From IMG/VR virus record IMGVR_UViG_2585427785_000006: 7,081 nucleotides of DNA; one strand, written 5' to 3'. The notes under the pieces were generated by a model. That model saw only the letters and a program-made list of their open reading frames with translations. It did not search any database and was not told the origin of the DNA. This document shows, piece after piece, positions 2,623 to 7,081 of the stretch (its first letter is position 1; every line of letters starts with the position of its first letter). This stretch comes from a virus. Lineage: Duplodnaviria; Heunggongvirae; Uroviricota; Caudoviricetes. The position numbers and the translations under genes were made by a program.

Positions 2623-2948
2623 ATGAGCAATCTGAATCCATGCATGACGTGTGGTGCCTGTTGTGCATTTTCCGCGTCTCTTTTTACTGGGCAGAAGCTG
2701 ACGATGCTGGCGGAAAGGTTTCGGTCAGTCTCACTGAGCAAATATCTCCTTTTCATCGCTGTATGCGCGGCACCAATCAGAAAAATCCCCGATGTGGCGC
2801 TCTTGCCGGCCCCCCCCGGAGAAAACGCATATTGCTCTGTTTACAAAAACCGTCCACATGCAGGGAATTCGCAATGTCCGGCGAAAATAGCATCGTAAAT
2901 GAAGCATGTAATCGCGCACGGGAAAAATATGGATTTCCAAAAATCTGA
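2623..2948 (+). pseudogene. YkgJ-family (CxxCxxCC putative zinc/iron-chelating domain) protein gene, disrupted by three 1-nt frameshifts
   Basis: The ATG at 2623 is preceded by a GGTGA Shine-Dalgarno and encodes [16 protein letters not shown]. The reading frame must shift -1 at T4 (2668-2671), +1 at C8 (2810-2817) and -1 at A5 (2845-2849) to give a ~109-aa protein: ...[15 protein letters not shown]...[64 protein letters not shown]. The ORF-track entries 2623..2898 and 2616..2948 are the two frames of this one gene. Confidence 0.6.
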
Positions 2949-3060
2949 ATATTCTCCGCCGTGCAAAAATGCGAACAACATCACTTCACTAATCAACCTG
3001 ACATGGCATACTTAGCACGCTAACTATGATAACAAACTAATACCCTAAAACTCATGGTTC

Positions 3061-3087
3061 CGGGACTGGTCGTGGTCCCGTTTTTTT
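3061..3087 (+). terminator. Rho-independent terminator for the YkgJ-like gene
   Basis: 6-bp GC-rich stem CGGGAC/GTCCCG (3061-3066 / 3075-3080), 8-nt loop, then T7 (3081-3087). The reverse complement has no U-tract after the stem, so it is plus-strand specific. Its T-run ends at the stop codon of the convergent J-like ORF. Confidence 0.55.
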
Positions 3088-3089
3088 AT

Positions 3090-4400
3090 TCAGCCAGCAG
3101 GCCATCCAACAACGTAACTGCGGATCGCCTTCAGCTCTGTCAGCGCCTCAACCTCTGCTTTCATCTGCAACTGCCGTGTATTAATCTCCACCCCCTTCGC
3201 AAACATCGCCTGCTCTGTCGCATCCGACAGGGCTATGATGTCTGCCGCCGTCACCGGCACCACATTATTATCCCCGTCGGTCCAAGCAAAACCTTCCGGA
3301 AGACGGTTATTCTCTGCCATCAGGCGTGTCATGCTTATCCTGGACAACGTCTTCTTGCCGTAATCCCAGTTCCTTCCGTTGAATTCCATCATGTATTCCA
3401 TATTCTCCTGCACATCACGCCAGATATTAATCTCTTCCCTTTTCGCCGCTTTTGCCGCTTCCAGTACTGCTTCCGTGGCGACAAAGGCACTCACACTTCC
3501 GTACGTTCCTGCTGTCAGCCCAGACCACAATGCTTTTCCGTGTTCTGTATTATCCGTTTCCGTTGCAGTATACGGCAGCCATACCTGTTCCCCTTTTTCA
3601 TTCCCCGCGTCTTCAAACTGCCCCTCACAGTTTATCCCGCCATATTCGTTGCTGGCTGCATTTCGTACTGCAAGAATCTCTTTTCCCTTATGGTAGTTCA
3701 CCGTCATCTGCTGACCACCAAACTGCTCCGCATCCACCTGCATCCCCACAATGGCCGTGTTCGGGTAGCACTGTTTCACATCGATGATTTCGGTGTATGA
3801 CGACCACAGCGTTCTGTTCTGCAGCTGGTCCGTGGTGCTGTCCGCCGTCTCCCTGACCATCCGGATGTTAAAGGGGCGGGGAGGCAGATTATCCAGAATC
3901 ACCGAGGCCAGGAACTGTGAGGTGGTCTTGCCGTTAATGGTGACATCCTTTTCTGTCACCCAGTTACCGTTACGCTGTAACTGAATCAGCAGACGGACAG
4001 AGGACGGATTACGGTCACCCTTTGACGTGGTCTCCACCAGTGACTGCACCCCGAAGGTCACCCGCAGGCGGTCAATGTTCGCTGACGTAATGGTGCGTGT
4101 TACCGGTTTTGCCCTGGTCACTTCGACACCCAGTACAGTTTCAGAGCCGGAGGACTCAAAGCCTTCCGGTGGTGTCTGCTCCTGCTCCCCGGCACGCCAG
4201 ACCGCGGTCACACCGTGTATCACGGGATTACCGTCCGTGTCCGTCAGCGGGGTTTTGTTCACCAGAATACTCTGCAGGCTTTTCACCGGGCCTTCTATCG
4301 GTCCCTCACCAATCGCATCAATCACGCTCATCATCTGCGTGGATTTGAGATTGTCTTTCGCCTCACGAGGCGTGTGTGCCTTACCGCCACCTTTTCCCAT
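3090..4400 (-). CDS. J: Chimeric/truncated tail tip (host specificity) protein: J-like N-terminal ~243 aa fused to ~190 aa of unassigned sequence
   Basis: 436-aa ORF with a GGAAGG Shine-Dalgarno upstream of ATG 4400. The N-terminus MGKGGGKAHTPREAKDNLKSTQ...FESSGSETVLG...VKQCYPNTA...NYH tracks lambda gpJ residues 1 to ~243. Downstream of about nt 3670 the sequence no longer resembles lambda J, and the ORF stops at 436 aa where J-like proteins run to about 1100 aa. Confidence 0.75.
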   Translation of the reverse strand: MGKGGGKAHTPREAKDNLKSTQMMSVIDAIGEGPIEGPVKSLQSILVNKTPLTDTDGNPVIHGVTAVWRAGEQEQTPPEGFESSGSETVLGVEVTRAKPVTRTITSANIDRLRVTFGVQSLVETTSKGDRNPSSVRLLIQLQRNGNWVTEKDVTINGKTTSQFLASVILDNLPPRPFNIRMVRETADSTTDQLQNRTLWSSYTEIIDVKQCYPNTAIVGMQVDAEQFGGQQMTVNYHKGKEILAVRNAASNEYGGINCEGQFEDAGNEKGEQVWLPYTATETDNTEHGKALWSGLTAGTYGSVSAFVATEAVLEAAKAAKREEINIWRDVQENMEYMMEFNGRNWDYGKKTLSRISMTRLMAENNRLPEGFAWTDGDNNVVPVTAADIIALSDATEQAMFAKGVEINTRQLQMKAEVEALTELKAIRSYVVGWPAG

Positions 4401-4506
4401 ACAGCCTTCCCCTGAATAAATTAACCGCCACTTGCCATTCCGTACAGAAGTCGGATATCCTTCGCCCGAAAAGCATGAAACACATTTCTGCCATGCTAAA
4501 GAGAAA

Positions 4507-4539
4507 CCCCGGTATCAGCAGATACCGGGGTTTTCTTTC
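4507..4539. terminator. Perfect 10-bp hairpin (CCCCGGTATC-agca-GATACCGGGG) flanked by T-rich tracts on both strands; putative bidirectional intrinsic terminator
   Basis: Stem 4507-4516 / 4521-4530 with a 4-nt loop. Followed by TTTTCTTTC on the plus strand and by TTTCTCTTT on the minus strand. Lies in the non-lambda insert between I and J. Confidence 0.5.
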
Positions 4540-4657
4540 ATGCCCACCGATAATCCTGTTGGTTAAAACCGGTAATGGCATAAAAATTCTGAATATCTTC
4601 ACATTTTCACAAACTGACCGTGGCGCGTATAATTTTTCTGCGTTTATTTTTTTTTTG

Positions 4658-4666
4658 TGATATAAA
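4658..4666 (+). promoter_or_regulatory. Candidate extended -10 element (TGaTATAAA) preceded by a T10 tract (4647-4656)
   Basis: TG at 4658-4659 sits one nt upstream of TATAAA (4661-4666), with an AT-rich UP-like region upstream. A second TATAAT is at 4628-4633. No convincing -35 for either. A start here would give a short plus-strand transcript ending at the 4699-4737 terminator. Confidence 0.3.
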
Positions 4667-4698
4667 AATAATTTCTTTCACTTAATCTTTCTTAACTC

Positions 4699-4737
4699 TC
4701 CCGCAGTTCCTGTCCGCGATCACTGCGGGATTTTTTT
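4699..4737 (+). terminator. Strong plus-strand rho-independent terminator
   Basis: 9-bp stem TCCCGCAGT/ACTGCGGGA (4699-4707 / 4722-4730), 14-nt loop, then T7 (4731-4737). The reverse complement is followed by GAGTTAAG, which is not U-rich, so it is unidirectional. It ends 8 nt from the stop of the convergent I gene. Confidence 0.6.
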
Positions 4738-4744
4738 ATTCTTT

Positions 4745-5410
4745 TTACCCCTGCCGCCCGATAACCACGACCTTTCCGCCCCCGCCTTCATCACGGGTGC
4801 TGATGTCCTGGGATATACGGCGGGAGCCAACCAGCATTTCCCCGTAAGGCACCGGCATCGGGTTCCCCTGGGCAATCATGTTATCCAGCGAGGAAAAGTA
4901 CGTGTTCTGTCTGCCGTTATCCGTTGCGCGGTAATCCGGTGTTTTTGCCTTCGGGGCCAGCATCTGGGCCACACCGCCCAGTATCATGCTGGCACCCAGT
5001 GAAAACAGCATCGTGGTGGCAGAAAAACCACCGGCACTCAGGGCTGTACCCCATAACGCCATCGAGCCTCCGGCCGTGAAGAAAGAGCCCACGATGGCTG
5101 CCGCCCCCAACACAATCTGCAGTCCACCCTTTCCGGCCCCGGCCAGTCGCGGCACAATGTGGATGACCGTTCCCTCACCCAGCTGTTCGTGAAGGCGGGC
5201 GTACACCACCTCCGGTGCCGTGTCTTCACCGGCAATACGTATCTGGTACCAGCCTTCGTTCATCTGAAGGCGAAAGCCCGGCATCTGCATCGACAGGGCG
5301 CGAATGGCTTCCGCTGCCGTGTTCACATACAGGCTGAGGCGGCGGCCAAATCGTTGTAAATCCCCGTGGTTGCCCACGGTTGAGCCAGAGATAACAGCTT
5401 CCACCATCAT
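4745..5410 (-). CDS. I: Tail assembly protein I-like, N-terminally truncated (homology from about nt 5365 downward)
   Basis: From GDLQRFGRR onward the translation tracks lambda gpI, including the Gly/Ala-rich hydrophobic segment and C-terminal ...NTYFSSLDNM.AQGN...YGEM.VGSR..SQ.IST.DEGGGG.VVVIGR. The first ~15 codons of the ORF (MMVEAVISGSTVGNH) are out-of-frame FII sequence, so the natural I start is missing. Confidence 0.75.
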   Translation of the reverse strand: MMVEAVISGSTVGNHGDLQRFGRRLSLYVNTAAEAIRALSMQMPGFRLQMNEGWYQIRIAGEDTAPEVVYARLHEQLGEGTVIHIVPRLAGAGKGGLQIVLGAAAIVGSFFTAGGSMALWGTALSAGGFSATTMLFSLGASMILGGVAQMLAPKAKTPDYRATDNGRQNTYFSSLDNMIAQGNPMPVPYGEMLVGSRRISQDISTRDEGGGGKVVVIGRQG

Positions 5411-5696
5411 CCGGCGAAACCCGGTCTATCCAGAAGTTTTCCTCACCGATGGTCAGCGTGTCTCCACGCCGCAGTTGCCGCACATCATCAGTCCGGACAA
5501 ACAGGGACGGGCTGGAGCCTTCAACGCGCACGCCCTGTCCGGCATAGCTGATATTTTCAGGGTCATCAAAAACACCACGTATTACTGCGCCGGACTGCTC
5601 ACCGGATGTCATGGTGGCTGACGTTCCCATGTACCCGCGTATCGTTTCATCGGCGCGGGCAATGGCAGCATCGAACAGGTTATCGAAATCAGCCAC
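5226..5696 (-). CDS. FII: Head-tail joining protein FII-like, lacking its last ~9 codons, with read-through extension into the I fragment
   Basis: MADFDNLFDAAIARADETIRGYMGTSAT...TLTIGEENFW.DRVSPDDGGSC.LWL.RG matches lambda gpFII residues 1 to ~108 (nt 5373-5696). The remaining 48 codons (QPRGFTTIWPPP...) are the I region read in another frame. Confidence 0.8.
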   Translation of the reverse strand: MADFDNLFDAAIARADETIRGYMGTSATMTSGEQSGAVIRGVFDDPENISYAGQGVRVEGSSPSLFVRTDDVRQLRRGDTLTIGEENFWIDRVSPDDGGSCYLWLNRGQPRGFTTIWPPPQPVCEHGSGSHSRPVDADAGLSPSDERRLVPDTYCR

Positions 5697-5707
5697 AGCG
5701 CCTCCCG

Positions 5708-6103
5708 TTATTGCATTCTGGCCAGGCCGCGCTCTGTCATTTCAGCTGCCACACCGGCAGAGACACGGAACGCCGTTCCCGGCAGCACAAATGCCACAGT
5801 GTCATCCCGCGTGGCGTGAAGTGCATCAGTATGCAGCGTCACCAGTGCCACGACCGTGACCAGAGCAGCCGTATCAATCACGGTATCCGGCTGCGCTGAT
5901 ACCACCTCATTTTCATGTCCGGTCAGCGCATTTTCCGGGCTGACAGATGTGTCCTGACCGGCAGCGTCATCCGTGTCATCAAGCTCCTCTTCCAGCTCTG
6001 CCACACGGAGCACCAGTTCTTCTTTCGTCCCCGTCAGGCTGACATCACGGTTCAGTTGCTCACCCAGCACCTGAAGACGGGCAATCAGTTCATCTTTCGT
6101 CAT
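5708..6103 (-). CDS. FI: Head assembly/DNA-packaging protein FI-like (intact, 132 aa)
   Basis: ATG at 6103 is preceded by a GGAGG Shine-Dalgarno. MTKDELIARL...LTGTKEEL.LRVAEL.EELDDTD...LTGHENEV.SAQPDTVI...HTDALHATRD..VAFVLPGTAFRVSAGVAAEMTERGLARMQ is close to lambda gpFI over its whole length. The ORF-track extension to 6142 is upstream read-through. Confidence 0.85.
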   Translation of the reverse strand: MTKDELIARLQVLGEQLNRDVSLTGTKEELVLRVAELEEELDDTDDAAGQDTSVSPENALTGHENEVVSAQPDTVIDTAALVTVVALVTLHTDALHATRDDTVAFVLPGTAFRVSAGVAAEMTERGLARMQ

Positions 6104-6114
6104 GGACTCCTCCA

Positions 6115-6142
6115 CAGAGAGAAAATGGCCCCGAAGGGCCAT
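6115..6142 (-). terminator. Hairpin with UUCG loop plus U-tract between the E fragment and FI (putative attenuator/terminator)
   Basis: On the minus strand: AUGGCCC-UUCG-GGGCCAU (7-bp stem, plus-strand 6125-6142) followed by UUUUCUCUCU, starting 2 nt after the TAA of the upstream ORF and just before the FI Shine-Dalgarno. Confidence 0.45.
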
Positions 6143-6144
6143 GA

Positions 6145-6561
6145 TTACGCCAGTTGTACGGACACGAACGCATCAGGATCAGCCAGCAGCATCAGCGGTG
6201 CTGACTGAATCATGGTGAACTCACGCGCCGGATCGCCGGTGGTCACCCAGTTTTTCGGGTAGCGGGCAGAGGCGTTAATACCTTCGCGCTGTGCGTCCGC
6301 ATCCTGAATGCAGCCATAACCAACACGGGCAGACTTCACCACATTCACCTCACGGATGTAGTCGCTGCCCATCGCATTCATGATGGCCCGCTGAAAGGGC
6401 AGTGTTTCCCAGCGCCCTTCCTGGTATGCGGATTCTTTCGGGAGATAGTAATTGGCATCCGCCCATTCAACGGCGGTCTGTGGCTCCGGCCTGAACAGTG
6501 AGCGAAGCCCGGCGCGGACAAAATGCCGCAGCCTGTTAACCTGACTGTTCGATATATTCAC
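6145..6561 (-). CDS. In-frame fusion ORF: terminase large subunit A residues 1-82 joined to the C-terminal ~56 residues of major capsid protein E
   Basis: GTG start at 6561 overlaps the Nu1 3' end by 26 nt, as in lambda. MNISNSQVNRLRHFVRAGLRSLFRPEPQTAVEWADANYYLPKESAYQEGRWETLPFQRAIMNAMGSDYIREVNVVKSARVGY is the gpA N-terminus. It is followed in frame by GCIQDADAQREGINASARYPKNWVTTGDPAREFTMIQSAPLMLLADPD.FVSVQLA, the gpE C-terminus. Junction at nt 6313-6318. Confidence 0.8.
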   Translation of the reverse strand: MNISNSQVNRLRHFVRAGLRSLFRPEPQTAVEWADANYYLPKESAYQEGRWETLPFQRAIMNAMGSDYIREVNVVKSARVGYGCIQDADAQREGINASARYPKNWVTTGDPAREFTMIQSAPLMLLADPDAFVSVQLA

Positions 6562-7081
6562 TCAGCAACCCCGGTATCAGTTCATCCAGCGCGGCTGCTT
6601 TGTTCATGGCTTTGATGATATCCCGTTTCAGGAAATCAACATGTCGGTTTTCCAGTTCCGGAAAACGCCGCTGCACCGACAGGGGGATCCCGTCGAGAAT
6701 ACTGGCAATTTCACCTGCGATCCGCGACAACACGAAAGTACAGAATGCGGTTTCCACCACTTCAGCGGAGTCTCTGGCATTCTTCAGTTCCTGTGCGTCG
6801 GCCTGCGCACGCGTAAGTCGATGGCGTTCGTACTCAATAGTCCCTGGCTGGAGATCTGCCTCGCTGGCCTGCCGCAGTTCTTCAACCTCCCGGCGCAGCT
6901 TTTCGTTCTCAATTTCAGCATCCCTTTCGGCATACCATTTTATGACGGCGGCAGAGTCATAAAGCACCTCATTACCCTTGCCACCGCCTCGCAGAACGGG
7001 CATTCCCTGTTCCTGCCAGTTCTGAATGGTACGGATACTCGCACCGAAAATGTCAGCCAGCTGCTTTTTGTTGACTTCCAT
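6536..7081 (-). CDS. nu1: Terminase small subunit Nu1 (intact, 181 aa)
   Basis: The ATG is at the window edge (7081). MEVNKKQLADIFGASIRTIQNWQEQGMPVLRGGGKGNEVLYDSAAVIKWYAERDAEIENEKLRREVEELRQ...SEYIEQSG is essentially identical to lambda Nu1 over its full length, including the N-terminal winged-HTH region. Confidence 0.92.
   Translation of the reverse strand: MEVNKKQLADIFGASIRTIQNWQEQGMPVLRGGGKGNEVLYDSAAVIKWYAERDAEIENEKLRREVEELRQASEADLQPGTIEYERHRLTRAQADAQELKNARDSAEVVETAFCTFVLSRIAGEIASILDGIPLSVQRRFPELENRHVDFLKRDIIKAMNKAAALDELIPGLLSEYIEQSG

Follow-up and report, generated by a model that had tools for sequence, protein, structure and literature searches.

An in-frame A–E fusion ORF in a lambdoid prophage remnant of Escherichia coli and a recurrent deletion endpoint at nucleotide 956 of the lambda map

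Introduction

The closest described counterparts of the locus reported here are two defective lambdoid prophages of Escherichia coli K-12. In DLP12 (nohD-aaaD'-tfaD) and in Qin (nohA), as in the window analysed in this work (a whole stretch of 7,081 nucleotides), an intact Nu1 homologue is followed by a 5' fragment of gene A that is joined by deletion to a late gene. The fusion ORF found in the window is a further example of this known Nu1 plus A-stub scar, as exemplified by K-12 nohD-aaaD. It differs from the K-12 remnants in that the partner of A is E rather than tfa or stf and in that the junction is in frame, giving an ORF of 138 aa. Moreover, the element lies at the argW/intS site and not at the argU or Qin site, and FI, together with truncated FII, I and J, is still there. 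K-12 DLP12 breaks after a TTAT at nt 1018 of the lambda map, and in other strains there are Qin-like and DLP12-like remnants whose break falls on the window's exact base.

Lambda terminase is built from TerL1:TerS2 protomers in which the C-terminus of TerS binds TerL, and in phage P22 the TerS-binding site lies within the first 23 residues of TerL (PMC9611059). The window fusion is the same as lambda gpA (TerL) in its first 82 residues, its start codon and its overlap with Nu1, but it is devoid of about 87% of gpA, including Walker B, the nuclease and the portal-binding C-terminus. Small proteins that bind the small terminase of a phage and thereby block packaging are known from PICIs (Rpp) and SaPIs (Ppi) (PMC6739421). 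Their likeness to the fusion is confined to a proposed mode of action, that of a small protein that could bind TerS/Nu1. Rpp mimics the DNA-binding domain of TerS and binds the TerS N-terminal domain, whereas the fusion fragment would bind the TerS C-terminus. Rpp is also encoded by an inducible satellite that has its own cos, and the fusion has no sequence relationship to Rpp or Ppi. Conservation across elements and strains further sets them apart, the fusion being a singleton cluster seen in none of 5,426 complete genomes.

Finally, the window resembles prophages that decay through microhomology-mediated deletions: junction homologies are 2–7 nt long, morphogenesis genes are lost colinearly and the scars are strain-specific. 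Unlike what is expected of random microhomology deletions, many independent events have one endpoint in common, down to the nucleotide. The fusion ORF alone is an ordinary pseudogene-like scar; it is this endpoint, recurring with nucleotide precision, that alone merits further attention.

Results and Discussion

The fusion ORF joins codon 82 of gene A to the end of gene E

Comparison of the window with lambda (J02459) by BLAST gave four colinear blocks, all on the - strand. The first aligns window 7081–6316 with lambda 191–956, that is nu1 and the first 246 nt of A, at 99.3% identity, and the second aligns window 6318–5383 with lambda 6987–7925, that is the end of E, FI and FII, at 95.1%. An intact Nu1 (small terminase) gene of 181 codons occupies positions 6536–7081 (- strand) and its product matches PF07471 over positions 1–164 of 164 (E 9e-101). 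The N-terminal winged-HTH of this Nu1 (residues 1–55) also matches the PADLOC model mad1 (E 1e-11), probably through generic HTH likeness.

Downstream, positions 6145–6561 (- strand) carry a 138-aa ORF with a GTG start and a TAA stop in the ORF list. This ORF is an in-frame fusion of lambda gpA residues 1–82 and gpE residues 286–341. Its A-derived part (codons 1–82; 6316–6561, - strand; lambda 711–956) ends in KSARVGY|S and its product is 100% identical to gpA 1–82 at the amino-acid level. The E-derived part (codons 286–341 and the native stop; 6145–6315, - strand; lambda 6990–7160) differs from gpE 286–341 by one substitution, E to A. In the base-level alignment, A codon 82 (...GTC GGT TAT|TCC) is joined to E codon 285 (...ACC TAT|GGC), so that the junction codon TAT (Tyr; 6316–6318, - strand) is common to both genes and constitutes a microhomology of 3 nt. 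It is also the recurrent endpoint GGTTAT| described below. The lambda interval that is lost measures 6,033 bp, or 3 x 2011, in the same alignment. An earlier note, made without database searches, had proposed an A(1–82)::E(C-terminal 56 aa) fusion with these coordinates and the junction peptide ARVGY|GCIQDADAQ, and had named the shared TAT (Tyr) codon as the likely microhomology. Both proposals are borne out by the lambda BLAST and the base-level alignment, the two lambda blocks overlapping by 3 nt at 6316–6318.

The fusion ORF overlaps the last 26 nt of Nu1, exactly as lambda nu1 (191–736) overlaps A (711–2636), and the start codon of lambda A is GTG too. The native GTG start and the 26-nt overlap had thus been read correctly, and they are simply inherited, because lambda A has the same start and overlap. 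A G+C-rich hairpin followed by a T-run (6125–6142, - strand) lies just past the fusion stop. It is the native lambda E–FI intergenic hairpin and falls inside the block colinear with lambda 6987–7925.

Profile searches were in agreement with this assignment. PHROG comparison of the fusion ORF returned the terminase large subunit and the major head protein only. The C-terminal 57 residues match residues 284–341 of the solved lambda capsid protein 7vi9 (E 1e-31), and Pfam Phage_cap_E (PF03864) was matched at positions 275–328 of 329, that is over the last 54 of 329. On the terminase side, Pfam GpA_ATPase was matched at profile positions 3–44 of 247 with 25.1 bits, below the cut-off of 25.6. The break after Y82 falls inside the P-loop region (KSARVGY|S), so a complete ATPase domain (Walker A and Walker B) is not retained. 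No GpA_nuclease match was found in the fusion ORF by Pfam, and lambda 957–2636 is missing from the window by BLAST. A full-length HK97-fold capsid protein is not retained either, since only gpE 286–341 is present, and AF2 gave this part a pLDDT below 40. The expectation that the ORF would lack the ATPase and nuclease domains is therefore confirmed. Alignment also excluded another origin for the tail: it is gpE-derived, and no natural gpA with the same tail was found. Judged from its sequence, the fusion product cannot be a terminase.

The fusion lies in a lambdoid remnant with three deletion scars

The window opens with yfdC, the tRNA-Arg(CCT) gene argW and intS, which is the CPS-53/KpLE1 site. 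The attachment end of the prophage (1009–2402, + strand) comprises argW (1009–1083) and the integrase gene intS (1209–2402). The lambdoid late operon lies in the orientation opposite to argW-intS and carries three deletion scars in total, the A::E junction being one of them. FI, which encodes a packaging protein, is intact (5708–6142, - strand; Pfam Packaging_FI 1–131 of 131). FII (5226–5696, - strand) is cut near residue 109 by the second scar (~5367–5383) and reads out of frame into I for 47 codons past it; this FII(~residue 109)::I(residue 21) junction shows a 6-nt microhomology, ACGGGG. The gene I remnant (4745–5410, - strand) keeps native residues 21–223 behind a new 15-aa N-terminus that starts at a chance ATG. 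At the third scar (~3704), J(1–232) continues in frame into an almost entire ORF-191/Tfa-like DUF4376 protein (3090–4400, - strand). The resulting J::DUF4376 ORF is 436 aa long, and its DUF4376 part is 44% identical to P-EibA orf-191A. Two of the three scars in the window are in frame, and a third of deletions are expected to be so in advance; the preserved frame of the A::E junction is therefore not beyond chance.

The two remaining BLAST blocks align window 5367–4755 with lambda 14831–15440 (I) at 70% identity and window 4400–3704 with lambda 15505–16201 (the start of J) at 78%. In the same comparison, W, B, C, Nu3, D and Z to K are missing from the window. Identity to lambda thus changes stepwise (Nu1-A' 99.3%, E'-FI-FII 95%, J' 78%, I 70%), which indicates either that the parent was a mosaic or that its cos-proximal part was homogenised by recombination with lambda-type phages. 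With Nu1, a 5' A fragment and a late gene, with its head genes lost and with its tRNA/integrase site, the remnant belongs to the nohD-aaaD type. Other E. coli strains carry lambdoid remnants truncated in different ways at argW-intS. The best complete E. coli genome covers at most 44% of the window, and the closest record is the draft genome of E. coli 4-203-08_S3_C1, which is 99.73% identical across the entire window.

Two further segments of the window were noted. The I–J spacer (4401–4744) measures 345 bp versus 60 bp in lambda and is 89% identical to PPompW and to Stx-converting phages. On its + strand it holds a near-consensus promoter-like site (4606–4633; 11/12 matches) and a terminator-like hairpin (4713–4729), and it may specify a small transcript, either antisense or from a moron. 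Positions 2478–2712, which lie between intS and the remnant of the tail fibre, are 84% identical to dinI of Stx phages; an intact DinI ORF was not seen in this segment.

Gene A is repeatedly broken at nt 956

In two genomes, the matches to a query spanning the junction stop at one and the same place; one lies in a Qin-like and the other in a DLP12-like prophage (L008, L009), each with an A remnant of 246 nt (82 codons). The endpoint is the same and the partners are different: lambda reads GGTTAT|TCC (native), the window GGTTAT|GGC (E), the Qin-like prophage GGTTAT|TGCACC (tfa) and the DLP12-like prophage GGTTAC|TGGTGC. At the DNA level, a scan was made for places where the 24 nt leading up to the site are kept and the next base is non-native, and the loci of individual proteins were fetched in addition. 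At least 13 distinct right flanks were found at exactly GGTTAY| (lambda nt 956), and about 19 when protein-only cases are included. Besides L008 and L009, the loci with this endpoint comprise L100, L130–L137, L145 and L146. Control scans of the same design at codons 78 and 88 gave no match, versus 6 loci at codon 82.

The protein-level sample consisted of the best 120 database relatives of the fusion ORF, in which frameshift tails were separated from deletion tails. Among these 120 relatives, 46 deletion-type tails break at gpA residues 82–216. Thirteen of the 46 start at residues 82–83 (p ~1e-13 under a uniform model) and eight at residues 102–103 (p ~4e-7 under the same model). These counts describe a biased sample, made of database ORFs of up to ~240 aa and of targeted pattern scans, and not a complete genome-wide census. 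Partners joined at residue 82 include E286, E312, B210, D84, FII22, J212, J688 and lom. Three Qin prophages at one chromosomal site carry A82::FII22, A82::lom and A82::tfa, respectively, and so form a nested set with a fixed left end. Together, these results indicate that the A-side breakpoint is not random, nt 956 being a hotspot that is reused by many E. coli prophage remnants.

The partner sites, as they stand in undeleted lambda, share 2–7 nt with the A site (CGGTTAT, GTTAT, GGTTA, GTTA and GGnTAT), and the shared bases always end in the terminal TA(Y). This is the behaviour expected of a 3' end that primes downstream.

An excess of in-frame joins could have been taken to indicate selection. 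It is strong among the listed proteins and gone at the DNA level, where in-frame and out-of-frame joins are mixed. Because both frames occur in the DNA, the excess among the proteins is a bias of gene calling.

One partner, ...Y|RSRKLP..ADEGALQKWW, located upstream of an stf-like gene, is joined to A at residues 56, 82 and 90 (P0092, P0014 and L146). Three endpoints with a single stf-upstream partner suggest either that short slippage between TTAT repeats followed as a secondary step or that this partner is a preferred one.

A sister site at nt 1018 and possible causes of the hotspot

The break at codon 102/103 again falls right after TTAT, at nt 1018, in K-12 DLP12 aaaD::tfaD and in one other event. 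At the K-12 locus (L138; NC_000913.3 581354–581662), lambda homology ends at nt 1018. In the protein list, at least 8 distinct tails start at A codon 102/103, and minor endpoints occur at residues 56, 90, 96 and 105. Positions 956 and 1018 bracket lambda 974–1003; within the 2.4 kb of nu1-A, only one other 30-nt stretch reaches an A+T content of 66% or more. The intervening 62 nt (957–1018) can form a modest hairpin at ~965–1005 (-9.4 kcal/mol, z -2.1), and 8 of 200 shuffled sequences fold equally well.

Several explanations of the fixed endpoint were considered. If nt 956 were a mosaic boundary among intact phages, lambda identity should drop there, but in 125 native loci it falls smoothly and without a step. 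A single widespread codon-82 remnant that seeded the later events does not account for the data either: the junction types are individually rare, the DLP12-like type being present in 6 genomes. Most of the "Qin-type" matches are two-piece matches, i.e. other junctions. TTAT alone is not the determinant, as the TTATs at codons 94, 115 and 177 are without events. In a comparison by eye with consensus sequences, a quasi-site for a Pin/Hin-type invertase, the RuvC/RusA consensus and an integron-type GTT would all place the crossover wrongly. As for the left flank of cosN, its likeness to the site amounts to GGTTA only and the sister hotspot is unlike cosN, so that a terminase mis-nick at a cosN-like sequence is a weak lead only. 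Retention of the right side only at nt 956, which would be the sign of a two-ended break, was found in none of 60 sampled records, of which only about 7 were partial.

A DNA 3' end, ...GGTTAT, seems to form at nt 956 and then to prime on downstream microhomologies of 2–7 nt; a 3' end formed in this way would explain why many independent remnants share the exact endpoint. As to what produces it, our best guess, and no more than that, is a nick or a pause in replication where the easily melted segment borders on its surroundings. More generally, we put forward as a tentative reading, to which we would give somewhat less than even weight, that gene A holds a nucleotide-precise deletion hotspot (nt 956, with its sister at 1018) where lambdoid prophages are "decapitated" again and again by a specific nick, break or replication pause, every event taking away the head genes and leaving cos-Nu1-A(1–82) behind. 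Nothing specific on a gene-A hotspot or on nohA/terminase remnants was found in the searchable literature, the coverage of which is incomplete. If a defined lesion or pause does act at this site, it would provide a testable mechanism for the domestication of lambdoid prophages by E. coli. Prophage grounding in this species would then be partly stereotyped rather than random, the fusion ORF being one of its products, and the retention by many genomes of a functional Nu1 and cos beside an A stub would be explained. Infecting phages recombine with this resident Nu1/cos reservoir (PMC3945230).

Distribution and history of the A82::E285 junction

A 201-nt query centred on the junction was spanned in none of 5,426 complete E. 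coli genomes, whereas 3,790 of them contain the two halves of the query apart from each other. The junction is known from about 10 draft assemblies. The exact fusion protein stands alone in its 90% cluster; it occurs in a few NCBI drafts (KDU66682.1, KEL09202.1, KEL17349.1), in an ENA metagenome scaffold and in an IMG/VR contig. The exact junction was not found in a one-per-species genome collection or in JGI metagenomes.

A 99%-identical protein (P0002) is encoded in a DLP12-like remnant (L147–149), in the order integrase, Q, lysis genes, bor, ybcV, ylcI, nohD, A82::E, FI, intact FII, Z'::stf and tfa. In L147, positions 2716–5977 of this DLP12-like carrier hold genes for an AAA_15/AAA_21 ATPase and an N6_N4 methyltransferase between Q and the lysis genes; these may be defence-type morons. 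A third remnant (P0005, L150) reads A82::E285-310::V166, then G, T and a truncated H. The junction is older than the strain from which the window comes, because it is also present in the DLP12-like and the third remnant, each of which has decayed differently. The three carrier states are not derivable from one another, and one ancestral (pro)phage with a single deletion, followed by separate decay, is therefore the simplest history.

According to this history, a lambda-type (pro)phage lost 6,033 bp, from A codon 83 to E codon 285, by illegitimate recombination at TAT. The genes W, B, C/Nu3 and D were removed completely, and the large terminase and E for the greater part. The deletion is by chance in frame, so that the reading frame opened by the GTG of A now comprises 82 codons of A and 56 of E and ends at the stop of E. 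The single-deletion ancestor then decayed differently in each lineage; in the window, the FII-to-I and J-to-tfa-like deletions followed.

The DLP12-like carrier and the window are 97.9% identical over 1,699 bp, with 6 mismatches in 766 positions to the left of the junction (0.8%) and 29 in 933 to its right (3.1%). Two haplotypes of the fusion ORF can be recognized, which differ by 6 nucleotides and 1 amino acid. This ratio could hint at constraint, but the low amino-acid divergence is explained equally well by polymorphism imported through recombination from functional phage E genes. Under a single origin, the polymorphism of the flanks would likewise have been brought in by recombination with other lambdoid phages, which is documented for precisely this region (De Paepe 2014, PMC3945230).

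The SNPs between the two haplotypes come close to the junction, 6 nt on its left and 36 nt on its right, and the A site is a demonstrated hotspot. Both observations would be accounted for if A82::E285 had arisen independently more than once, both sites being preferred partners. We regard such a repeated origin as unlikely: the microhomology on the E side is merely TAT, E285 is unseen with any other A endpoint, and conversion tracts from infecting phages may reach the heterology boundary on each side, as would be consistent with the recombination described for this region (PMC3945230). A single origin followed by separate decay is thus retained.

The fusion product is probably without function

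No sigma-70-like promoter site was found on the - strand within the window, the E–FI hairpin behind the stop being the sole signal close to the fusion ORF, and expression would therefore need late transcription entering across cos from outside the window. Such transcription from upstream of Nu1 would yield a short gpA N-terminal peptide followed by a non-folding capsid tail, a product predicted to be without ATPase, nuclease or portal-binding activity. No PADLOC family was matched by the fusion ORF at E<=0.01. The AF2 model, computed from a shallow alignment of 29 sequences, has a mean pLDDT of 44; it is confident for the helix at residues 5–20 only and below 50 for residues 39–138.

The suggestion in the earlier note that the ORF specifies a translationally coupled functional product, possibly able to interfere with packaging, found no support: neither a promoter-like site nor a PADLOC match was present, the mean pLDDT was 44 and the junction occurred in 0/5,426 genomes. 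The fusion ORF is, in our opinion, very probably a deletion scar, the neutral leftover of a 6-kb loss in a decaying prophage. We infer that it is neutral baggage rather than a selected gene.

A functional alternative is a selected "poison subunit", co-translated with the intact resident Nu1, whose gpA N-terminus would bind the TerS of an infecting or induced lambdoid phage, block assembly of TerL1:TerS2 and so cause superinfection interference. The gpA 1–82 part is indeed 100% conserved, the N-terminal helix is the part predicted with confidence by AF2, and the ORF is in frame and has kept its native start. Residues ~1–48 of lambda gpA reportedly carry the specificity of Nu1 binding (Frackman 1985; Wu 1988). 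The contact of TerL with the C-terminus of TerS, and the location of the P22 site in the first 23 residues of TerL (PMC9611059), point in the same direction, so that the fragment could, in principle, bind Nu1. Furthermore, the resident Nu1 genes of such remnants are functional in lambda (PMC3945230), and interference through TerS binding has a precedent in Rpp and Ppi (PMC6739421).

Against this scheme, the junction is absent from the 5,426 complete genomes and limited to about 10 drafts, and the same N-terminus is joined in and out of frame to unrelated tails, which argues that the tail is not selected. A promoter within the window and a match to a defence family were both not found, disorder is predicted for the greater part of the protein, and the carrier's own Nu1 would titrate the fragment. 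Taken together, these points make a poison subunit quite improbable, and the neutral scar remains the preferred interpretation.

Spread of the junction and annotation of the scar

The junction occurs with IntS/argW, in a DLP12-like context and together with intact tail genes. This range of contexts could reflect a helper-dependent defective phage, which with a single 6-kb deletion would have kept cos, Nu1 and the genes from FI to the tail and would have spread by means of helper capsids and terminase. Lambda minus 6.0 kb measures ~42.5 kb, or ~88% of the genome, which is within the packaging limits of lambda, and a cosB-like sequence is present upstream of Nu1 in one locus (L004). Nevertheless, every carrier seen has undergone additional decay and none has the single deletion in an otherwise intact genome, the junction is rare (0/5,426 complete genomes), and homologous recombination between resident lambdoid prophages can copy a deletion from one locus to another without any particle (PMC3945230). 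Spread as a helper-dependent phage is accordingly held to be highly improbable compared with decay from a single-deletion ancestor. That the junction is an assembly or chimera artefact can practically be dismissed, as it occurs with consistent flanks in NCBI assemblies from separate projects, an ENA scaffold, a Logan assembly and an IMG/VR contig.

The main value of the fusion ORF taken alone lies in a caution for annotation, since NCBI records name this scar "phage terminase large subunit family protein" or "major capsid protein". P0001, P0002 and P0051 are one chimera, which is called "phage terminase large subunit family protein", "major capsid protein" or "phage major capsid E family protein" depending on the record. 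Likewise, PHROG families 3925 and 4145 are apparently built from such short terminase N-terminal fragments.
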